A stretch of 64,000 bases of DNA from Elusimicrobiota bacterium (GCA_016208085.1 JACQYT010000015.1:2775-66774); one strand, 5' to 3'; positions 47,270-62,095 are shown, counted from the first letter of the stretch. Notes: generated by a model not told the origin, from the sequence alone. Program-made: numbers and translations.

Positions 47270-48410
47270 TCATGATTGAACCAATTCTATATGTCCAGCG
47301 AACTTTTCCCGCATCTTGGCGGAGGTGTAACTCCACCGAATTGGTCTTGGGTTTTTATTGCGATCAGCCAAATGCCGCAGTATCGTTGTTTTCATCTCGT
47401 CGATGTTTTCAAAATGTCGCGGAGTCAAAACTTTTCGTTGCAATGGCGAGAATACAATTTCTACTTGATCAAGCCATGACGAGTTTTTGGGCAACCAGTG
47501 AATTTGGACGGCGAAGGGCAGCCTTAAGCTTTCTATCCAGCTTTCAATCTGTTTGGGAGCGTGCGTAGGCCCATTGTCCAGGATAAAATGCAAGACACGG
47601 ATGTTTTTGGTCCAGAGACTGGAAAAGATCATGTTAAGAAAGTCCTGGAAGTCAACGAAACGCTTGCGCTCAAAAAAACGGGCCATCGTTTCTCCCGTAT
47701 GAACCAGAAGCCCTGCGAAAAGATTGGCAATACCAAGTCTCTTGTAGCGGCACCTGCGCTTCAAGGTTTTACCTGGACCGGCAGGAATAATTCCGCCGGT
47801 GACGCGCAAAGCCTGAATGCAGGTCTTTTCATCCGCGCAGACGAGAATTTCCCGGCGTTACGCCAATGCCTGGGCCTGCTCGTAAAGATCGAGTACGACG
47901 GTGGCTCTTTCCAGAAACAAAGGGGCGGTCGGCTTCTGCCACGAGCGGTGCTGCCAAGGCTTGATTTTATCCTGGCGCAACCACTCACGTATGGTTGAAG
48001 GACTTATGGTAGAGACAATGCCTTTTTCGACGGCAAGTTCAGCTAAATCCGGTGAAGACCAGCGAGATAACGGTTTATCAAAATCTTTAGGCAGCGTGCA
48101 CGCCAAAGCCGTGATTTGGGCTCTTTGGGCTGAGGGAAAAAAAACGCGGCGCTCCGGATCGCGGCGCTTCTTGAAGAACTGGTCCATTCCGGCACGCCTT
48201 GCGGCATCGGCGCACAGTAACCACGGAACAACCGGCTTTTCGGGCAATGGCAACATTGTCCCAATCAGGGTGTTCATAGGCCAGGACCAGAACTTTGGCG
48301 CGTACCACTTGGTAATGCGGCGCTTTGCGCAACCGGGTTGTATGTTGAAGTTGGGCATACTCCTGTGCTGTCAATCGAATAGGATGTTCGGGCTTGGGTC
48401 CACGAGCCAT
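47270..48410 (-). pseudogene. IS630-family DDE transposase, disrupted
   Basis: Three ORFs: 48087..48410 (HTH), 47858..48358, and 47270..47809 (DDE: FILDNGPTHAPK...HWLPKNSSWLDQVE). Frame change at the A8 run 48137-48144. In-frame TAA at 47858-47860, just before REILVCADEKTCIQAL. Confidence 0.8.
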
Positions 48411-49627: not shown

Positions 49628-50860
49628 ATGGATTTTAAAAAAGCGCTTTACAAAAGGCTGAAAAAATACGCCCGGGTGGACACCAAAAGCGACGAGGCGG
49701 CGCATACCTGCCCGTCGTCAAAGGGGCAACTGGTCCTGGGCAGAATGCTCGCCGCCGAACTTGAAACCATAGGCGTAAAAAAAGTGAAGCTGGATAAATA
49801 CGGCTATGTGACCGGGACGATAGCGGCAACCGCGAAAGGAAAAACGTCCGTGATCGGCTTCCTGGCGCACATGGACACCTCGCCTGAAGCGAGCGGCAAA
49901 AACGTAAAGCCGCGGCTCCACAAAAATTACGCCGGCGGAAATATTTATATCAGCAAAAGAATGGGAGTTGTTTTGACGCCCGGGGGCTGTCCCGAACTTT
50001 TAGAATGCAAAGGGCAGGATATAGTCACCGCTTCGGGCGACACCTTGCTGGGCGCGGACGATAAAGCGGGCCTCGCCATAATAATGACCGCGGCCGAACA
50101 CCTGGTACGACATCCGGAAATAAAACACGGCGCGATAAAAATCGCCTTCACGCCGGACGAAGAAGTAGGGCAGGGCGTCAAATATTTTAATGTCAAAAAA
50201 TTCGGGGCGGATATCGCCTACACCTTCGACGGCGACATGGCGGGAACCATCGAGGAGGAGACTTTCAACGCGGACGGCGTAAAAATACATATTAAAGGCA
50301 AAAGCGTCCACCCCGGTACGGCCAAGGACGCGCTGGCCAATGCCGCGCGCATCGCCGCCGACATAGTGGCCTCCTGGCCGGAAAACCGGCTGCCGGAAAC
50401 CACGGAAAAGCGGGACGGTTTTGTAATGTTCACGGACATAAAGGCTGAAATAGAAAAGGCCGAGATCACCGGCATAGCGCGGGAGCACGACCTTGGAAAG
50501 CTTAAAAAGCTTGAAAAACATCTTGAGGCCATCGTGGCGGAAAAGCGCGTCAAATATCCGCTGGCCGAAATAAAGCTTGAATTTAGGGAGCAGTACCGCA
50601 ACATGGGTGTTGTGCTGGCGAAGCGCCCCGAGGTAATGGCAAACCTTATCGCGGCGGTAAAAAAAGCGGAGCTTGTTCCGCGCATAAAGCCGGTCAGGGG
50701 GGGGACGGACGGCGCGCGACTGTCGTTCCTGGGCCTACCGACGCCGAACGTTTTCACCGGCGGCTATAATTACCACGGCCGCTACGAGTGGGCCTCGCTG
50801 GATGGAATGAATAAATCCGCGGAAGTTCTGCTGAACCTCGTCCAGGAATGGGCGAAATAA
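49628..50860 (+). CDS. pepT: Peptidase T (tripeptide aminopeptidase, M20B)
   Basis: YARVDTKSDE, GFLAHMDTSPE, LGADDKAGLAIIM, GGTDGARLSF. Confidence 0.9.
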   Translation: MDFKKALYKRLKKYARVDTKSDEAAHTCPSSKGQLVLGRMLAAELETIGVKKVKLDKYGYVTGTIAATAKGKTSVIGFLAHMDTSPEASGKNVKPRLHKNYAGGNIYISKRMGVVLTPGGCPELLECKGQDIVTASGDTLLGADDKAGLAIIMTAAEHLVRHPEIKHGAIKIAFTPDEEVGQGVKYFNVKKFGADIAYTFDGDMAGTIEEETFNADGVKIHIKGKSVHPGTAKDALANAARIAADIVASWPENRLPETTEKRDGFVMFTDIKAEIEKAEITGIAREHDLGKLKKLEKHLEAIVAEKRVKYPLAEIKLEFREQYRNMGVVLAKRPEVMANLIAAVKKAELVPRIKPVRGGTDGARLSFLGLPTPNVFTGGYNYHGRYEWASLDGMNKSAEVLLNLVQEWAK

Positions 50861-50895
50861 ATTATTAATAAAGTATTATTTCTGTAACAAAATAG

Positions 50896-50904
50896 TGGTA
50901 TGCT
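50896..50904 (+). promoter_or_regulatory. Extended -10 promoter element TGGTATGCT
   Basis: Part of a duplicated upstream block, agtattatttctgtaacaaaatagtggtatgct, paralogous to 53536-53568. Confidence 0.4.
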
Positions 50905-50931
50905 TTTATGTCGGAACGCTGGATAGCCCGA

Positions 50932-53551
50932 ATGGCAAACTATCTTATCCTTTTACACGACAGGACGCTGGGTCCGGTTACGGCCGCCGAAGCCGTGGGC
51001 CTGCGCGGCTTCACGCTGGAAACCCCCGTAAAATATTCCGACTCCGCCTCGGCGGACTGGAGCGCGGCCGGCTGGATGCCGGAGTTAGCCGCCGCCTTCA
51101 ACCGCATAAACGAAATAAACCGGGAAGGGGAAAACCTTAAAGACTCCTTTGAGGCCATGCGCGGCGGCTGGGAGCGCGAGAGGGATCTCCTGCTCGCAAG
51201 CTGGAAAGAGGAGGCGGACTCTTTCAAGGCAACGCTTGCCGCGCTAAAATCCTCCGCGGAAGAGGTCGGCAAACTGGTAAGGGAGCACCAGGTACGGTTT
51301 TCCGAGGTCCGGCTCATGGAGGAGCGGGCCGCGGCGCACCTGAAGGAGCCCCGCAGGCTTGCCGAGGAGTATAAGCGGGAGCTGGAAAAGAAATTTGAAG
51401 GCGCTTTTTCCCAATTGAGCCTCCTGCGGGACAGCAGGCTCCAAGACTGGGCGGCCCAGCTGCGCGCGCGGCTGGACGGGCAAACTGAAAAGCTGGACGA
51501 GCAAGTTTCCGCCGAAAAGGAAAAGCAGAAGCAGCTGCTCCTGGCGTGGACCGAAGGATTTCTCCAATCGCTGAAAAAAACGCTTTCCCCGGGGCAGGGT
51601 CCGCCCGGCGGCGGCGTCCCCGGAGCCGGAGAACCGCCATCCGGCGACGCGCAAAAGCTCCTTGCCGGCGTGGATGGCCTGATCCGGGAACTAAGGGGGA
51701 AGGCCGGAGCCGAACTGGAAAAAAAGCTGGAGCGCGACATTCCTTCCGTCTACGCCGACCTCCGCCGGCGCGTCGAAGAAGAAACGGCCGCCATGATCCG
51801 GGAGTTCACCTCAATGGCCGCCGCGGAACTGGCGGACGGCCGCCGCGCCCTTTCAAGCGAACTGAAACCGGCGTGGGAGAAGCTTTCGTGTGCGGCGTCG
51901 GCCGAAATCGACGAAAGCCTGCGCGAGTTCAGGAGAACGCAGCAGGCCGCGCTTGACGAGGAAGTCCGCAAATTCCGCCAGTCCCTCGCTGGCAGGGTGA
52001 ACTCCGCCGGGGCGGAGGCCGGCAAAGCCATGGACGCCGAAACCGCCGATTTACGGGGGGAAATCTCGCTGCGGCTCGGGAAGTACTCCGCCGCGATGGA
52101 CGGGCTGCTGCGGGAAATGAGGGAACGGGCCGGGGCCGCTCTGGAGAAAAAACTGGACGGCGAAATTTCCTCCGTCTACGCCGACATCCGCAAGCGCTTC
52201 GACGAAGAGACCGCCGGCATGCTAAAGGGGTTCGCGGACCGCTCGGCCGGGGAATTGGAACCCCGGTGGGAAAAATTTTCGGCCCTGGCGGCAGCCGAAT
52301 TTGAGGGCAGCCTGCGGAAATTCCGGGAAGCCCTCGCCGAAAAACTGGACGCCGCCGGGGCGGAGACCGCCAAAGCGCTGGAAGCCGCCGCGCTGGAAGC
52401 CGGCAAAGCGGCGGAGGGGGAAACCGCCAATCTGCGCGGAGAACTGGCGCGGGAAGCGCAGGATTTCTCCGTCACAGCGGACAGGATGGTCCGGGAGCTG
52501 CGGGAGAAGATCGCGACGGAACTGGAAAAAAGACTGGAACGCGAGATTCCCGCCGCCTGCGCCGACTTCAACAGAAGCCTTGAAAAAGAGGCGGCCGACA
52601 GGCTCAGACAGTTCACGGAGCTGGCGGCCGGGGAACTGGAGGCCGGGCGCCGCGCCGTATTGAGCGGGCTGGAGCCCATGTGGGAAAAGTTTTCGTCCGC
52701 GATGACTGCCGAACTGGACGACAGCTTGCGGGATTTTAATCGGAAGAAGCAGGGCGCGCTTGACGACGAAGTCCGGAAATTCAGGGACGCGCTCGCCCGC
52801 GAGCTGGACGCCGCCGCCCTGGAAGCCGGCAAAACGGCGGAGGGGGAAACCGCCAATCTGCGCGGGAAACTGACGCTGGAGGAGAAAAAGTTTGCCTCCG
52901 CCGGCCAATCGCTTACGCGCGGGCACGGCGGCCGGCAAGGCGCTGGAAGCCGAAACCGCGGAACTGCGCGGGAAACTGACGCTTGAGATGAAAAAGTTTG
53001 CCGCCGCCGCTGCGGCGGCCGTGAGCGCCATTGAAACCGAATGCGCCGATCTGCGCGGGGAGCTGGCGCTTGAGATGAAAAAGTTCTCCGCGATACGGGC
53101 GGAATTTGATGAAAGCCTGCGCGAATTCAAGAGAAAAAGAGAGGAGAATTTCAGCAAGGTCCTGTCGGAGCAGGCCGCGGAGTCCGAATTCCTGAGCCGG
53201 GAAGCCCGCGAAAAGATGGAGAGCGTTTCCGCCGAATTCTTGAACCGGATAGCGGAGATGAAGGCGTGGCTTGAGCGCACCGCCGGAGAGCTGGATAAGG
53301 CGCGCGAAGCAACTACCGCAGCCCAGGCGAAGCTGCTTGCGGCGGCTGCGGGGGAAAAAGAAGTTCCGGCTCCGGACGGACAGTTGGGAGAGCGCCTGCT
53401 GGAGCTGGAGCGCAGGATCTCCAAAGAAATGCTGGACAGAAAGCTCGGCGCGGTCACGTGGCCCTTATCGCCGCGCTGCTGTCTCTTCTTTCATTTCTGG
53501 CAAGATGATCCCGATGCCCGGAATAGTCGGAAAAAAGTATTATTTTTGTAA
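50932..53551 (+). CDS. GYF-like N-terminal domain + coiled-coil repeat protein, reading frame broken near 52895-52935
   Basis: ORFs 50908..52986 and 52892..53551 are consecutive parts. Start moved to MANYLILLHDRTLGP (50932) by homology with MENYFILLNGRPFGP of the paralog. Three repeat units of about 130 aa. Confidence 0.6.
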
Positions 53552-53559
53552 CATGATAG

Positions 53560-53568
53560 TGGTATACT
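53560..53568 (+). promoter_or_regulatory. Extended -10 promoter element TGGTATACT
   Basis: TG-n-TATACT, 20 nt upstream of ATG 53588; no SD in the short leader. Confidence 0.45.
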
Positions 53569-53587
53569 TTTTAGCAAGCAAACCGCA

Positions 53588-54970
53588 ATGGAAAATTATT
53601 TTATACTTCTGAACGGCAGGCCTTTTGGCCCGCTCAAGGCGGCCGAAGCGGCCGCTTTGAGCGGCTTCGGCCCGGAAACACCCGTGAAGAACGCCGGCTC
53701 CGCGTCCGCCGGCTGGATCGCGGCCGGCGCCGTGCCGGAGTTGGCCTCAATTCTCAACTGCACCCTTACTCCCGCGCCCGGGGCGGCCGCGGCTGAAACC
53801 GGGCCGGAAACGGCGCGTGAGGGCGCAGCGCTTAACGCCGCCGACGAAGCCCTGAAACAGTGGCTGGACGACGCCCGCCGGAAAATAGACGATTTTTTCC
53901 CGGCCCTGCGCGAAAGTTGGGAAAGGGAGAAGGAGAAAGCCGCGGCCAGGCTGGAAAAAAAGCTGGACGGCGAAATTTCCTCCGTCTACGCCGAGATCCG
54001 CAAGCGCGTTGAAAAAGCGGCGGCCGGCAGGATAAAGGAATTCGCCGACATGGCGGCCGCGGAACTGGCGGCCGGGCGCCGCGCCGTGTTCAAGGAACTG
54101 CAACCCCTGTGGGAAAAACTTTCAGCCGAGACGGCGGCTGAATTCGACGACAGCCTGCGCAAATTCAGGGAATTCAACAGGAAGAAACAGCGCGAGATAG
54201 ATACGGAAGTCCGCAAACACATGGAATCGCTCACCCGCCTCAATACCGCCGGAGCAGAAACCATCAAAGCCATGGAAGCCGAAAACGAAAACATGCGCCG
54301 GACGCTCTCTATTAAAGCGCAGCAATTTTCCGATAGTCTGGACGAGCTGATACTGAAACTGCGGGAGCAGGCCGCCGACGAACTGGAAAAAAAGCTGGGG
54401 AGCGAAATTATTCCCGTCTCCGGCTACGCCGAGATCCGCAAGCGCGTTGAAAAAGCGGCGGCCGGCAGGATAAAGGAATTCGCCGACATGGCGGCCGCGG
54501 AACTGGCGGCCGGACGAAGCGCCATGCTGAAGGGACTGGAGGCCGGCTGGGAAAGTCTTTCGTCCAGGATGACGGCTGAATTCGACGGGAGCCTGCGCGA
54601 ATTCAAGAGAAGAGGAGAGGAGAATTTCAGCAAGGTTCTGTCGGAGCAGGCCGCGGAGTCCGAATTCCTGAGCCGGGAAGCCCGCGAAAAGATGGGGAGC
54701 GTTTCCGCCGAATTTCTGAACCGGATAACGGAGATGAAGGCGTGGCTTGAGCGCACCGCCGGAGAGCTGGACAAGGCGCGCGAAGCCGTCGCCGCCGCAG
54801 CCCAGGCGAAGCTGCTTGCGGCGGCTGCGGGGGAAAAAGAAGTTCCGGCTCCGGACGGACAGTTGGGAGAGCGCCTGCTGGAGCTGGAGCGCAGGATCTC
54901 CAAAGAAATGCTGGACAGAAAGCTCGGCGCGGTCACGCTGGCCCCCTTTACAGCGAAAGCTATTCTCTGA
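53588..54970 (+). CDS. GYF-like N-terminal domain + coiled-coil repeat protein (paralog)
   Basis: 460-aa ORF; two repeat units. The last 345 nt are about 95% identical to 53114-53457. Confidence 0.7.
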   Translation: MENYFILLNGRPFGPLKAAEAAALSGFGPETPVKNAGSASAGWIAAGAVPELASILNCTLTPAPGAAAAETGPETAREGAALNAADEALKQWLDDARRKIDDFFPALRESWEREKEKAAARLEKKLDGEISSVYAEIRKRVEKAAAGRIKEFADMAAAELAAGRRAVFKELQPLWEKLSAETAAEFDDSLRKFREFNRKKQREIDTEVRKHMESLTRLNTAGAETIKAMEAENENMRRTLSIKAQQFSDSLDELILKLREQAADELEKKLGSEIIPVSGYAEIRKRVEKAAAGRIKEFADMAAAELAAGRSAMLKGLEAGWESLSSRMTAEFDGSLREFKRRGEENFSKVLSEQAAESEFLSREAREKMGSVSAEFLNRITEMKAWLERTAGELDKAREAVAAAAQAKLLAAAAGEKEVPAPDGQLGERLLELERRISKEMLDRKLGAVTLAPFTAKAIL

Positions 54971-55042
54971 AAGACAACTTTACTCTCATAGCGGCCCTTA
55001 TCGCCGTGTTCCTTTCAATCCTGTCGCTTCTGGCCAGGTAAA

Positions 55043-56506
55043 ATGCGGATAAAAAACAAACTTATACTGCAAAGCGTCGTTCTGCTGGGGTCCGCCCTGG
55101 GGGGCGCGGATATATTTTTTTATATTTCCGAGCGAAACCACCTGCTGGCCGAGGAGGCTTCGGCCCAGGGCGCGGCGGCCATGAAGTTCTCCAACGTGTC
55201 GGCGGAGTGCATATTGTCCGGGAACGACTTCTTTCTGCTGAATTACACCAAAGCGGCAATGGAGAGATCCCCGGGCCTGCTCTGGGCGGCCGTCCTGGAC
55301 CCCGGCGGGAAATACTTGTTCCATTCAGACCTGACGCGGGGGGACGCCGGGCTTATCGGGAAAAGCGCCTTCGGGAGCTGGGCGGACTATGCCGTGAAGG
55401 CTTCAAGCGCTTCATTCAGGGACACTGAATCCGGCGCCGGGAAAGCGCGGCTGTGGTTTTACCCTGTCGCCTCCCAAAAGAAAATCCTGGCCGTCGCCGT
55501 TCTCGCCTATGACCGGACAATGCTGGAGCATAAGCTGTCCGCGATCCTTTCCGCCGGCCATAAGAGGTTCCTGTGGATAGCGGCCGCCGTGCTGCTGCTT
55601 GGGATAACGGCGTCCGTGTTCCTGGCGGTTTACTTCACGCTGCCGGTGCGAAAGCTCTCGGAAGGCGCCGCGGCCATCGGCGAGGGCAACTGGGATTTCA
55701 GGATAGAGCTGGGCCGCAGGAACGATGAACTGGGGCTGCTGGCAGGGGAATTCAACGAGATGGCGGCCAGGCTCAAAGAGCTGGACGAGCTTAAGAACGG
55801 GCTCATCCACCACGTCTCGCACGAAATACGCAATCCCCTCGGCGCCATAGACGGCTATCTGAAGCTCTTTTCAAGATCTTGCGCGGGTATGAGCCGGGAG
55901 CAGGAAGACTACGTGAGGATAATGCGCTCAAATCTGGCCCGCCTTAACTCCCTGGTGGACGATATACTGCTGCTGGCCGCGCTGGAAGCTGGCCGGATCC
56001 GCTATGATTTCCGGCCTTGCCCGCTTTCGGAGACCGTCCGTTCCGTGGCGGAGCTTTTCGCGGCCAGCACGCTGGAGAAAAATATAACGCTGGATTGGGA
56101 CGTGCCGAAAGATCTGACGGTCAGAATGGACCCGGAAAGGATACGGCAGGTGCTGGTCAACCTCACGGCGAACGCCGTCAAATACACGCCCGGAGGCGGG
56201 GGTATAAGGCTGGGCGCCCAGGCATGGAACGAGCTGTCGCAGGTGAGGGTCTTCGTGATGGACACGGGACCGGGCATACCGCCTGAAAAAATACAAACCC
56301 TTTTTCGGAAGTTATCCAGGGCCGACGATGTGCGGACCCGGGGAAAAGTAAAGGGGACCGGCCTGGGGCTTTATATCTCCAGGCAGATAGTGGAAGCGCA
56401 CGGGGGCGCCATCTGGGCGGAGTCCGCGCCGGGTGAGGGAAGCGTATTCTCTTTCACCCTGCCCGCCGCCGCGCCGGAGCCGCCGGAGGCTGCACTGGAT
56501 GCCTAA
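55043..56506 (+). CDS. Sensor histidine kinase (periplasmic sensor, HAMP, HisKA, HATPase)
   Basis: Two TM helices, HAMP LPVRKLSEGAAAIGEGNWDF, H-box HHVSHEIRNPLGAIDGY, DTGPGIP, GTGLGLYIS. Confidence 0.85.
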   Translation: MRIKNKLILQSVVLLGSALGGADIFFYISERNHLLAEEASAQGAAAMKFSNVSAECILSGNDFFLLNYTKAAMERSPGLLWAAVLDPGGKYLFHSDLTRGDAGLIGKSAFGSWADYAVKASSASFRDTESGAGKARLWFYPVASQKKILAVAVLAYDRTMLEHKLSAILSAGHKRFLWIAAAVLLLGITASVFLAVYFTLPVRKLSEGAAAIGEGNWDFRIELGRRNDELGLLAGEFNEMAARLKELDELKNGLIHHVSHEIRNPLGAIDGYLKLFSRSCAGMSREQEDYVRIMRSNLARLNSLVDDILLLAALEAGRIRYDFRPCPLSETVRSVAELFAASTLEKNITLDWDVPKDLTVRMDPERIRQVLVNLTANAVKYTPGGGGIRLGAQAWNELSQVRVFVMDTGPGIPPEKIQTLFRKLSRADDVRTRGKVKGTGLGLYISRQIVEAHGGAIWAESAPGEGSVFSFTLPAAAPEPPEAALDA

Positions 56507-57179
56507 CGTACTGCTTTGCCTGCGCGGCGCGGCGGAAGCCGCGTCCCTTGCCGCGGGGCTGGCCGCCAGGGGGCTGACCGTGTCCCGCGTGGCGACCGGA
56601 GAGCAGGCTTTGGAATCGGCGTTCGCCTCAAACCGCGATTTTGTGGCCGTTGAAACCGATCTTCCGGGCATAAACGGCTTTGAAGTATGCCGGGTCCTTA
56701 AAAGAGACCTGCGGACCGCCGCTGTCCCCGTTGTGCTTATAGGCACCTCCACCGGCCGCGCGGAAATACTGGCCGGGTTTGAAGCGGGGGCTTGCGAATT
56801 CCTGACCAGGCCGCTGGATCCCCAGCTTTTTGCCGCCAAGGTGGAAGCGCTGCTGCGGCACTTATGGGAATCGCTGCCGGCCTTGAAGCTTGCCGTGGGA
56901 CCGATAACGATGGACACCGCCGACCACATGGTGGAAGTTAAAGGTTCGCCGGTGCGCCTGACCGGCAAGGAATTCGCGCTGCTTGAGCTTTTCCTGCGAC
57001 GTCCCGGCAAACTTCTCAATTCGGATTTCATCCTGGGCATGGTCTGGGGCGGCGACAGGCGGGGGGGGTCCCACACCCTCACGGTCCACGTACAGCGCCT
57101 GCGCCAAAAGCTGGGCCCCGGCGCCTGCCGGCTCCTGGAGACCATCCACGGCCTCGGCTACCGGTTGAACCCCAAATAG
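56499..57179 (+). CDS. OmpR-family response regulator with atypical receiver domain
   Basis: Winged-helix C-terminus LTGKEFALLELFLRRPGKLL...VHVQRLRQKLG...HGLGYRL. ATGCCTAA overlap with the kinase stop. Confidence 0.85.
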   Translation: MPNVLLCLRGAAEAASLAAGLAARGLTVSRVATGEQALESAFASNRDFVAVETDLPGINGFEVCRVLKRDLRTAAVPVVLIGTSTGRAEILAGFEAGACEFLTRPLDPQLFAAKVEALLRHLWESLPALKLAVGPITMDTADHMVEVKGSPVRLTGKEFALLELFLRRPGKLLNSDFILGMVWGGDRRGGSHTLTVHVQRLRQKLGPGACRLLETIHGLGYRLNPK

Positions 57180-60313: not shown

Positions 60314-61707
60314 AACACACAACGCTCGGACTGATCCTTTTGGCCGCCTTTTTGCCGGCCGCCGCCGGCGGAACCCCGTGGACGGCGCAATCCCTCGAAT
60401 CAGGGCTGGAGACGGGCGACAAGCTTGCGGACACGGGCCATGAGCACGAAGCCCTGTCGGTTTTTCTGGATGTCCTGAAATCCAGCCCCGGAGATAAACG
60501 GGCGCTTACGGCTATGAAAGAACTGGCCGCGCGCGCGGCCGCGGCCGCCGGCGCAAAATCCACGGCGGCCCTGGATAACGCGCGGCTTTACAACGCGCTG
60601 GACGACGCGGGGGTTGAAATGCTGAACGAAGTCCGGGAGCCGGAACTGCGGCTGGGCTTCGCGAGGGCCAGGCGGCTCTTCAACGACGGACAGCTTTTGC
60701 TGGCGTACGATGTGTTCCTGTTGCTTGAAAGCCGCAAGCCTTCCCAGGACTGGCTCAAGGACGAGATCAGGCGCTATCTCCGGGAAAGACTGCCCCGGGA
60801 AATAGAGCGCGCACGGGTGAGAGGTTTTTACGGGATAAACGCGGACCTTTATTGCCTAAACGCTTTAACGGCGTTGAGCAGAAGCGACTGGGAAGGAGTC
60901 TACAGGAATCTTGGACTGTGGCTGAACATTTCCGTGCCCGGAAAACCCGAGCAGGGCGCAAAACTGGAAAAAGAGGCGAAATTTCTGCTGGCGCGCATGA
61001 AAAGCAGGATCTCCCTGTCCCAAATCGAAGAAAGAGGGGTCTCCTGGCTTGTGGACGCGCGGCAAAGTTTTTTAAAGCAGGATTACGACGGCGCCGTAAA
61101 CATGCTGGAGGCGTTCATACCGGTTGCGGGCGGGGTGGAACTTTCCGCGAGGGCCTGGGAACAGCTTGGAGCCGCTTATGATTTCAACGAGCTTCTGGAC
61201 GGCATCGCCAAGACTGAAACCGCCCTCAGCCGGGGGCAATACGCCGAGGCCTCGGTTTTAATAGCGAACGCCCTGGAGCGGTACCCGGGCAGCAGAAAAA
61301 TGGCGGAACTTAAAAGCGCGCTGTTCGAAAAAATCCGGCCGCCCGCGGAACGGGGCGTAATGGCGCGCGTTCCGGCCGCGGAGGCCCCGTGGGCCGAAAC
61401 TCCGGAAGCTTCCCGGACCAACGCCGCCCAGTCGCCGGCCCGGATTTCCGCGGGCGCAGGCCCGAAACGGGTCCGGCCGTCGCGCAGCCAGGAGGAAGTT
61501 CCCGCTCCCGACGCCGGCGTAAAGCTCCCCACCGGGGAGGAAAAAGCAGCGGCCGATTCCTATTATCTCCAGGGGATTTCCGCTTACGCCACGGGCGATT
61601 TTGCCAAAGCCGTGAGCAGTTGGAACGCGGCGCTTAAGCTTGTGCCGGACCATCAGAAGAGTCTTAAGGCCCTTGAGCGCCTCGCGACGGAAACGAAAGG
61701 GCGCTAA
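60310..61707 (+). CDS. Secreted TPR-repeat protein
   Basis: ATGA overlap with the upstream gene; signal peptide; TPR-like DSYYLQGISAYATGDFAKAVSSWNAALKLVPDH. Confidence 0.6.
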   Translation: MKHTTLGLILLAAFLPAAAGGTPWTAQSLESGLETGDKLADTGHEHEALSVFLDVLKSSPGDKRALTAMKELAARAAAAAGAKSTAALDNARLYNALDDAGVEMLNEVREPELRLGFARARRLFNDGQLLLAYDVFLLLESRKPSQDWLKDEIRRYLRERLPREIERARVRGFYGINADLYCLNALTALSRSDWEGVYRNLGLWLNISVPGKPEQGAKLEKEAKFLLARMKSRISLSQIEERGVSWLVDARQSFLKQDYDGAVNMLEAFIPVAGGVELSARAWEQLGAAYDFNELLDGIAKTETALSRGQYAEASVLIANALERYPGSRKMAELKSALFEKIRPPAERGVMARVPAAEAPWAETPEASRTNAAQSPARISAGAGPKRVRPSRSQEEVPAPDAGVKLPTGEEKAAADSYYLQGISAYATGDFAKAVSSWNAALKLVPDHQKSLKALERLATETKGR

Positions 61708-61720
61708 GAGGAGACCGGAT

Positions 61721-62095
61721 ATGCCCAGAATACTGGCGGTTGAAGACGAAAAGGACCAGTTGAACATGCTGAAGGTTTTTTTCAAAGGGGAGGGCTGGGA
61801 TTTCACGGGGGCCGCTACCGGCGCCATTGCCCTGGAAGAGGCCGCCGCCAGGCCCGACGTGATACTGCTGGATGTGAATTTGCCAGACATCAATGGTTTT
61901 GAACTCTGCAAGGCCCTAAAGGAAAATCCCGCCACCTCCGGCATCCCCGTGGCGCTGATAAGCGGAGATGCAAGGGATAAAGAAAGAATAATGAAGGGCC
62001 TGGGGGTGGGAAGCGCGATCTACCTGCTCAAACCGGTGGACCTGGACGTTCTGAAGGCGAAGCTGGAGGCCGTGCTCAGGATGGGAAAGCTGTAG
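61721..62095 (+). CDS. Single-domain CheY-like response regulator (canonical residues)
   Basis: GAGGAG RBS; ILAVEDEKD, VILLDVNLPDINGFE, ALISGDA, LLKPV. Confidence 0.85.
   Translation: MPRILAVEDEKDQLNMLKVFFKGEGWDFTGAATGAIALEEAAARPDVILLDVNLPDINGFELCKALKENPATSGIPVALISGDARDKERIMKGLGVGSAIYLLKPVDLDVLKAKLEAVLRMGKL

Follow-up and report, generated by a model that had tools for sequence, protein, structure and literature searches.

Tandem genes for rare GYF-headed, predicted tail-anchored rod proteins at the start of a kinase/regulator/fibre cluster in an Elusimicrobiota bacterium

The two tandem genes described here lie in a stretch of 64,000 nucleotides (nt), given as one strand, from the Elusimicrobiota bacterium GCA_016208085.1; this whole stretch is called the window, and all window coordinates are counted from its first letter. 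The genes encode a long and a short paralog (gene 1 and gene 2) of a protein family that is very rare, uncharacterised and so far found only in uncultured groundwater-type bacteria. According to our analysis, its members share a layout of a GYF_2 head, usually a Pro-rich stretch, an all-helical rod of 350-850 residues, a juxtamembrane motif (SEIPVII ... PLY..SLKDN) and one transmembrane (TM) helix. Wherever the flank is known, a kinase/regulator/fibre cluster is present with the family gene as its conserved first gene. We hold the descriptive part of this account, namely architecture, tail anchor, paralogy, gene conversion, cluster position and assembly errors, with high confidence. The proposed mode of action, a membrane-tethered cytoplasmic scaffold or adaptor for the cluster, is put forward tentatively, as an idea that somewhat more probably fails than holds, and for the complete explanation, description and mechanism together, we consider the chances to be even.

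Protein architecture

A preliminary description, made from the sequence alone, had proposed a pair of tandem paralogs with a GYF-like head followed by three and two copies of a coiled-coil unit of about 130 residues. The tandem paralogy was recovered by a repeat finder and by local alignment, and the heads (50931-51106 and 53587-53762) share 70% of their nucleotides over 176 nt and 57% of their residues. The Pfam model GYF_2 (PF14237, formerly DUF4339) is a 50-position profile with a gathering cut-off of 25.8 bits. Isolated gene-2-type heads exceed this value over the complete profile (positions 1-50), with 27.0 bits for the window, 26.7 bits for the ortholog P0001 and 30.3 bits for P0002; the gene-2 score falls to 22.2 bits when the full-length protein is scanned. 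The head model obtained with AF2 (mean pLDDT 83.8) has a beta-beta-alpha-beta-...-alpha layout and thus the small beta-sheet plus helix fold of the GYF type. If this model is compared with the PDB using Foldseek, the top match is the GYF domain of GltJ (7Z3C; probability 0.99, TM-score 0.60, root-mean-square deviation 2.7 A), followed by the GYF domains of GIGYF1/2, Arabidopsis, Smy2 and CD2BP2, with E-values that are weak (0.04-0.9) because the domain is small. Both the profile score and the fold match therefore uphold the proposed GYF-like head. Sequence searches of the PDB with the head profile and with the repeat-unit profile gave nothing significant (best UGGT, TraI, vinculin and CdiA-CT, E 0.2-0.4), and a fold search with the full-length model returned GYF domains only, via the head, the low-confidence rod matching nothing.

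The distant members P0008 and P0009 carry poly-Pro runs right after the head (PAPPPPPPAP and PVPPPPPLSAP, respectively). These runs and the Pro/Gly-rich segment of gene 1 are candidate GYF ligands. A Pro-rich C-terminal extension of the kinase encoded downstream (56459-56503, LPAAAPEPPEAALDA) was considered as a ligand as well and rejected, being absent from the orthologs at the loci L001 and L008.

Outside the head, AF2 predicts long helices and a terminal helix at 457-478. The unit counts of the preliminary description proved correct: the long units, which measure 127-144 amino acids (aa) and carry the motifs ELEKKL..EI..VYA, AAEL.AGR, WEK and SLR.F, begin at aa 248, 390 and 517 in gene 1 (spacing 142 and 127 aa) and at aa 108 and 252 in gene 2 (spacing 144 aa). 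The repeat finder reported internal repeat families of 300, 188 and 144 nt. From the term coiled coil, however, only the helical part could be retained. In 6/6 members the hydrophobic residues of the rod recur with a period of 3.66-3.74 residues (power 2.4-7.8, as compared with a shuffle maximum of at most 2.0), and the heptad signal at 3.5 residues stays at noise level in the six members (power 0.06-0.52). Consequently, a classical heptad coiled coil is not supported, and the pattern indicates amphipathic helices of a type close to 11/3. Scans with NCBIfam and PADLOC models yielded sub-threshold helical noise only (asparagine synthetase, ZorA tails, LegC2/C7 and Cas8e), and neither the rod nor the juxtamembrane motif has a match in Pfam, NCBIfam or the PDB.

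The C-termini of the homologs follow the pattern ..SEIPVII..(G/P-rich)..PLY..SLK(D/E)N.TLAAAL.AA..S..ALLAK and form a single C-terminal TM helix. Hydropathy windows (KD19) above 1.6 start only at 481, 458, 635, 788 and 975 in proteins of 505, 479, 658, 812 and 999 aa; in gene 2 the tail is the sole hydropathy peak of the protein (KD19 2.68). Every full-length member thus has exactly one hydrophobic segment, comprising the last 20 or so residues, lacks a signal peptide and stops 1-2 residues past the TM helix. A single TM helix at the extreme C-terminus without a signal peptide implies a C-tail-anchored protein with its bulk in the cytoplasm. In the resulting N-in orientation, the GYF head and the rod would hang from the inner membrane on its cytoplasmic side.

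Frame disruptions in the assembled window

As assembled, gene 1 exits its frame near 52900 and carries on in another one (open reading frame (ORF) 52892-53551). In addition, both genes terminate soon after ..LDRKLGAVT, and the hydrophobic stretch ending in LAR and a stop sits in a different frame in each. We compared the region with assembled Logan contigs from four groundwater runs, which hold 0.90-0.91 of its sampled words, and from a fifth run. All four runs contain a 523-nt contig whose positions 1-86 equal 52836-52921 and whose positions 254-523 equal 52922-53191, with zero mismatches, so that 167 nt are absent from the window at 52921/52922. With these nucleotides added, gene 1 is open over 905 codons without a stop, and the residues gained are more sub-repeats of the type ..AGKAL.E.A..RGEL.LE.KKFSAA.., as in the ortholog P0004.

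The tail of gene 1 is affected as well. A 662-nt Logan contig covering 53457-53992 has 126 different letters before 53457, ending in ..GTCATCCTTGC, of which the last 30 bring ..YSPRDAVILAVALIAALLSLLSFLAR, followed by a stop, into frame, and the contig that ends at 53456 and 54935 continues with GGTCGGAGATACCGGTGATAATCGG (RSEIPVII). About 121 nt are absent at 53456/53457, the middle 66 nt or so of this piece not being read in the contigs, and because they are missing the gene-1 tail is out of frame in the window. For gene 2, a Logan contig found via the kinase protein (L006, SRR12113406) equals the window over 2283 nt from 54936 with zero difference and has 64 extra nt at 54935/54936. They encode RSEIPVIIGSQKGARGKFPAAGAG, including the family motif RSEIPVII, and with them gene 2 measures 505 aa and ends in ..GAVRSEIPVIIGSQKGARGKFPAAGAGPLYSESYSLKDNFTLIAALIAVFLSILSLLAR and a stop. 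The three lengths of 167, 121 and 64 nt each have the exact modulo-3 residue needed to bring the respective frame back.

It is very probable, judging from these contigs, that the frame break and the two out-of-frame tails are assembly errors caused by repeat collapse and that the true products comprise about 954 aa and 505 aa. Two circumstances count against this view: contigs rather than raw reads were compared, so that a minority strain with real deletions may exist, and the deletions show no flanking micro-homology at their junctions, contrary to what might be expected. If the window were correct instead, both paralogs would be decaying pseudogenes in this strain, or their tails would be reached by programmed frameshifting. 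The contig as given, with its three frame-disrupting differences and junctions lacking micro-homology, would suit such a scenario, and so would the conservation of the tails in another frame. However, five independent run assemblies of the same strain have the longer in-frame versions at 10-58x word depth, none of them has the junctions of the window, and all three sites of missing sequence are repeat edges, where assemblers fail. Furthermore, frameshifting would skip a conserved part of the protein, since the missing 64 nt encode the family-conserved RSEIPVII. Consequently, we regard decay or frameshifting as very unlikely. The 31-mers across the two 3' junctions of the window occur in no indexed run, which is weak evidence with only two sampled words each. 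Read as assembly collapses, the three apparent frameshifts call for caution with repeat-rich genes in metagenome-assembled genomes (MAGs).

Gene conversion between the paralogs

The preliminary description had noted that the last 345 nt or so of both genes are about 95% identical and had attributed this to recent gene conversion, a claim that withstood closer analysis. The segments 53098-53458 and 54574-54937 agree at 344/361 positions (95.3%), with the final 143 nt being identical. Over residues 1-335, gene 2 is collinear with its short orthologs P0001 and P0002 (score 868-872, 58% identity), whereas scores of only 352-517 are reached with the long, gene-1 types. For residues 336-505, 170 in number, the relation is reversed: they are 95% identical to window gene 1 and 74% to P0004 (score 519), in contrast to 43-46% and a score of 302-311 for the short orthologs. 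Accordingly, a tree built from the C-terminal module unites P0001 and P0002 in a clade (100/100) that has a long branch and excludes window gene 2, which instead stands beside window gene 1 (distance 0.03). The 60-aa heads gave an unresolved tree; for the 5' two-thirds of gene 2, orthology is deduced from the alignment scores. These comparisons indicate that the 3' third of gene 2 was overwritten by gene-1-type sequence in this lineage and that the gene conversion is real. Thus the mosaic gene 2 represents a clean, phylogenetically supported case of conversion between tandem paralogs.

The shared part appears in the Logan graph as one contig of about twice the flank depth with two entries and two exits, and therefore both copies truly contain it. 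The two copies may be even more alike than the window shows. Of the 11 differences that separate the gene-1 tail from the gene-2 tail, six are synonymous if read in the tail-anchor frame. In the tandem pairs of the loci L003 and L005 no such homogenisation is seen (25-40% identity); the conversion is therefore lineage-specific and need not be functional. Inside gene 2, the two 90-bp copies in the long units are exact, the remaining unit sequence being about 87% identical, and the Logan depth is roughly doubled there. Such an exact identity suggests a second, intragenic conversion event in the short gene.

Within the shared segment (53162-53456 / 54638-54935), the letters of run X1 at 54772-54793 resemble those of gene 1, unlike in runs X2-X4. 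The 13 differences that separate the window copies may thus in part be strain variants that were phased by the assembler.

Distribution and gene order

A word-indexed search found 5 proteins among 5.8 billion clusters, and a HMMER profile search of 1.84 billion representatives gave 19 matches, 6 of them at E<=1e-10; the remaining matches are limited to the head or belong to helical proteins of a generic kind. The family thus amounts to about 7 clusters among these representatives. Scans of the GTDB species genomes and of the JGI metagenomes contributed one locus each, which is the already known MAG locus. All named members are annotated as 'hypothetical protein' and stem from Elusimicrobia/Elusimicrobiota MAGs or from an unclassified MAG. 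Their lengths range from 476 to 999 aa across lineages, and the distant members P0008 (812 aa) and P0009 (999 aa) also comprise a head, a long rod and a tail anchor, with the juxtamembrane motif present in P0009. The statement of the preliminary description that no characterised family with this architecture is known can be maintained. Neither widespread homologs of known function nor a head devoid of a GYF-like fold emerged, since the homologs are rare and 'hypothetical' and the best PDB matches of the head are GYF domains.

The same description had placed the pair directly upstream of a kinase operon. This position is right, yet the relation is closer than described: the family gene belongs to the cluster as its conserved first gene, and its stop adjoins the kinase start. 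In the window, the stop of gene 2 lies one base before the kinase ATG (TAA-A-ATG), and at L008 the corresponding junction is an overlapping ATGA of 4 nt. Such a position of the kinase gene would suit translational coupling to gene 2. The Elusimicrobia MAG loci L001, L002 and L004 have, in this order, an M20 peptidase gene (pepT), one family gene, the kinase and the regulator, and L003 and L005 have a tandem pair, long then short, as the window does. Downstream of the regulator, the window encodes a CTD/CHU_C surface protein, a PorV-like (PorV/PorQ-like) barrel, a TPR protein, CheY and the fibre protein. At L008, the gene for P0009 is followed by the kinase, the OmpR-type regulator, a CHU_C protein, a 397-aa protein, a TPR protein, CheY and the start of a large protein. 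The order of eight genes is thus identical between L008 and the window, despite P0009 being a distant member.

The regulator itself is atypical. Its acceptor position is occupied by Glu (VAVETDLPG; VTIETELPG at L008), and in all three lineages compared (56499-57179, L001:5234-5914 and L008:4787-5470) the N-terminal acidic pair is absent and Arg replaces the conserved Lys. Because these three features recur in all three lineages, the domain is classified as a conserved pseudo-receiver. The coordinates of the pair, of its parts and of its immediate neighbours are compiled in Table 1.

Table 1. Features of the tandem pair and its immediate surroundings in the window
Feature	Coordinates	Strand	Remarks
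M20 peptidase gene	49628-50860	+	Just 5' of the pair
Promoter/operator-like element, copy 1	50867..50907	+	Core 50880-50904 TTCTGTAACAAAATAGTGGTATGCT: GTAACA box, 9 nt, TATGCT after TGG
Gene 1 (long paralog)	50932..53508	+	ATG 50932, begins MANYLILLHDRTLGP (MANYLILL); stop 53506-53508; split over three frames as assembled
Gene 1, GYF_2-like head, diverged	50932..51099	+	Gap-free alignment to gene-2 head, 26 invariant columns
Gene 1, Pro/Gly-rich segment PGQGPPGGGVPGAGEPPSGD, candidate GYF ligand	51586..51648	+	Top proline density within gene 1
Gene 1, three long helical units	51673..52899	+	Second unit without AAEL.AGRRAV segment
Gene 1, short sub-repeat array (29-35 aa)	52800..53097	+	Type ..AGKALEAE.A.LRGKL.LE.KKFSAA..; repeat families D4, D8
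Gene 1, C-terminal module, donor-type copy of conversion tract	53098..53456	+	71% aa identity to gene-1 ortholog P0004
Gene 1, predicted tail anchor ..VALIAALLSLLSFLAR, then stop	53457..53508	+	Out of frame in the window
Promoter/operator-like element, copy 2	53531..53571	+	Core 53544-53568 TTTTGTAACATGATAGTGGTATACT
Gene 2 (short paralog)	53588..55041	+	ATG 53588, begins MENYFILLNGRPFGP; stop 55039-55041
Gene 2, GYF_2 head	53588..53755	+	Pfam GYF_2; AF2; Foldseek
Gene 2, two long helical units	53909..54760	+	Hold exact 90-bp duplication 53986-54075 = 54424-54513
Gene 2, conversion tract, gene-1-type sequence	54574..54935	+	Mosaic alignment scores, tree
Gene 2, juxtamembrane motif and predicted tail anchor ..PLYSESYSLKDNFTLIAALIAVFLSILSLLAR, then stop	54936..55041	+	Like ortholog tails PLYRERYSLKDNFTLAAALIAALLSILALLAK
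Sensor histidine kinase	55043..56506	+	Pfam: two TM segments, HAMP, HisKA, HATPase_c
OmpR-type regulator, conserved pseudo-receiver	56499..57179	+	Pfam; alignment of three orthologs

The start of gene 1 was placed by alignment to orthologs. A second in-frame ATG lies 24 nt 5' of this conserved start (leader 50908-50931). In L001 the equivalent leader (L001:1626-1655) forms a short upstream ORF of its own (MSQRWTA-stop), its stop and the start codon overlapping as TGATGA, and the leader sequence ATGTCG.AACGCTGGA.AGC is common to window gene 1 and L001.

Further observations concern the neighbouring genes. By eye, and from the translation only, the CheY-like protein encoded at 61640-62095 looks canonical, and it may be the kinase's real phospho-partner. 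On a Logan contig (L003:3567-4096), a kinase N-terminus of some 70-85 residues continues straight into the C-terminal winged-helix part of the regulator; either the contig is chimeric or about 1.9 kb have been deleted in that population. According to the ORF list only, frame-split ORFs resembling an IS630-type transposase lie on the minus strand at 47270-48410, two genes upstream (PhoU-like, then peptidase).

Relation to known systems

To our knowledge, bacterial GYF-domain membrane proteins are widespread and GltJ is the only one that has been studied. The family described here is a bacterial N-terminal GYF membrane adaptor with a new layout, and it falls outside the GltJ ZnR-GYF class. Bacterial GYF domains are typically located N-terminal to a membrane module (PMC11135422), and with respect to this order the family resembles GYF_2 proteins in general; it differs from them by its rod of 350-850 residues and its juxtamembrane motif. 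The GYF domain of GltJ binds AglZ, a long coiled-coil protein with an associated receiver domain, at a proline-rich sequence (PMC11135422). If compared with GltJ (AgmX) and AglZ of the Agl-Glt gliding system of Myxococcus xanthus, the family shares the GYF domain, the Pro-rich stretch, the long rod and the membrane anchor, here combined in one chain, and its genes are likewise found next to those for receiver-domain proteins and an envelope-spanning surface apparatus. However, the family head and the GltJ GYF domain are only 22% identical in sequence. Unlike GltJ, the family lacks the zinc-ribbon, the MglA-binding linker and the periplasmic domain, its sole membrane segment being the C-terminal tail anchor. 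No zinc-ribbon hit was obtained, no Cys/His pattern was found (Cys is near 0%), and there is no periplasmic C-terminus. Mgl, Agl or Glt genes are missing here, and the cluster instead holds a two-component system and anchor parts resembling those of the type IX secretion system (T9SS).

Other parallels concern single parts of the proteins. Like ElaB and YqjD of Escherichia coli, family members lack a signal peptide and combine a helical cytoplasmic part with a single TM helix at the extreme C-terminus (PMC6389858). ElaB and YqjD differ in being DUF883 proteins of about 100 aa that are regulated by RpoS/OxyR and associated with ribosomes or stress. A GYF domain, repeats and a kinase operon are all missing from them, and no sequence similarity to the family was found. 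The rod is also reminiscent of the long, membrane-anchored helical tail of ZorA (Zorya), and PADLOC ZorA models align weakly (P0009, 2.7e-9). In contrast to ZorA, a MotA/ExbB channel domain is missing, only tail positions of the model being aligned (e.g. 320-634 of 699), and there are no ZorB-D neighbours. The ZorA match covers low-complexity helical sequence only, and composition and periodicity probably account for it.

Taken together, the layout of GYF domain, Pro-rich stretch, giant non-heptad rod and tail anchor is new, and it is fixed at the head of a signalling/surface-fibre cluster. The family is thus a testable candidate for wiring a cytoplasmic scaffold to an envelope fibre apparatus and an atypical two-component system. 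So far, no more than a handful of uncultured genomes contain the family, its function is deduced, and we know of no genetic system for the phylum Elusimicrobiota.

Proposed role

One might envision the family proteins as scaffolds tethered to the membrane. The GYF head would dock onto a proline-rich partner, which could be the protein's own Pro-rich segment, that of its paralog or another protein of the cluster. The rods would self-associate beneath the membrane, beside the co-translated kinase, and the resulting assembly might position or modulate this kinase together with the pseudo-receiver regulator and the fibre apparatus of the envelope. In functional terms, such a protein would be similar to the Myxococcus pair of GltJ (GYF, membrane) and AglZ (Pro-rich, long coiled coil) joined in a single chain. 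We infer the orientation, the binding of partners, the oligomerisation and the link to kinase and regulator. Several results speak against such a role or the layout on which it is built. The gene-1-type heads remain under the GYF_2 cut-off (P0004 15.3 bits; no Pfam hit for window gene 1). The window gene-1 head is 82% identical to that of P0004, and it is counted as GYF_2 because of its homology to gene 2 (57% identity, 26 invariant columns). A strong Pro-rich segment is present only in P0008, P0009 and window gene 1 and is weak in gene-2 types and P0004. The AF2 rod has a pLDDT of 50-65 and a pTM of 0.19 and shows no tertiary packing. The kinase start is not visible in the 212 nt downstream of the family gene at L009, and none of the RNA runs holds the locus.

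A more specific version of the scaffold idea would see in the family a one-chain equivalent of the GltJ-AglZ 'focal-adhesion' pair, with GYF head, Pro-rich ligand, non-heptad rod and tail anchor united in a single protein. Head-to-ligand polymerisation would then create a sub-membrane platform holding the kinase and the pseudo-receiver OmpR regulator, which could link cytoplasmic signalling with the way in which the T9SS-like anchored surface fibre is placed or deployed. For the long and the short paralog (about 954 aa and 505 aa), co-assembly would proceed via the membrane-proximal module, which conversion keeps identical. This elaboration appears improbable to us.

Two other scenarios could account for such proteins. 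They might act in membrane stress or lipid binding, their amphipathic helices sensing or protecting the cytoplasmic face of the inner membrane, similar to apolipoprotein, LEA, PspA/LiaH or ElaB-like helices, while the kinase reads the membrane state as in the Lia/Psp systems. The helical period of 3.7 instead of 3.5, the operon coupling to a sensor kinase, the weak matches to Apolipoprotein A1/A4/E and ApoLp-III and a tail anchor like that of the E. coli stress proteins ElaB and YqjD (PMC6389858) are compatible with this idea. However, the Apolipoprotein A1/A4/E matches (PF01442) reach 10.5-16.3 bits against a cut-off of 90, PspA/IM30 and DUF883 give no match, and the rods are far longer than known membrane-stress proteins. 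Moreover, the GYF adaptor head and the poly-Pro runs would be left unexplained, and the cluster concerns surface fibres, not envelope repair. A role in membrane stress is thus unlikely in our opinion, albeit worth keeping in mind. Alternatively, the proteins might form a purely structural, cytoskeleton-like element rich in coiled coils that is attached to the membrane and shapes or polarises the cell, with a link to the kinase that is only transcriptional. One could cite in favour the very long helical repeats, whose number and length vary by lineage (476 to 999 aa), the membrane anchor and the weak likeness of the rod to long ZorA tail models. Yet distant members share both the stop-start coupling with the kinase and the place in front of the fibre cluster, a core cytoskeletal function would call for a far wider distribution, and the GYF head points to specific docking. 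Such a structural role is therefore quite improbable, and the membrane-tethered scaffold is retained as our tentative proposal.

Upstream element

A duplicated block in front of both genes had been proposed in the preliminary description and was recovered here, with 88% identity between the two copies (41 nt). In the 64-kb window there are exactly two occurrences of the motif TTNNGTAACA-N9-TANNNT (0.00 expected), one for each paralog. It is found once per locus that holds a family gene start, always just upstream, at 8 independent loci including L008 and L009, and the block represents a phylogenetic footprint. Its TANNNT part takes the forms TATGCT, TATACT, TATCCT, TATAGT, TATAAT and TAAATT, which make a good -10 box, often after TGn. 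A scan with the sigma-70 consensus gave no plus-strand promoter, and the element has no canonical -35 box. We read it as a putative dedicated promoter with an overlapping operator, for which the cluster's own winged-helix regulator would be the obvious candidate binder. A reading of the GTAACA element as similar to a PhoB box was dropped, as the second half-site is not conserved.

At L008 (174-349), the GTAACA element is situated about 180 nt upstream of the start, as compared with about 30-45 nt elsewhere, and the long leader of this locus is rich in short repeats containing GAAC and GGGTT.

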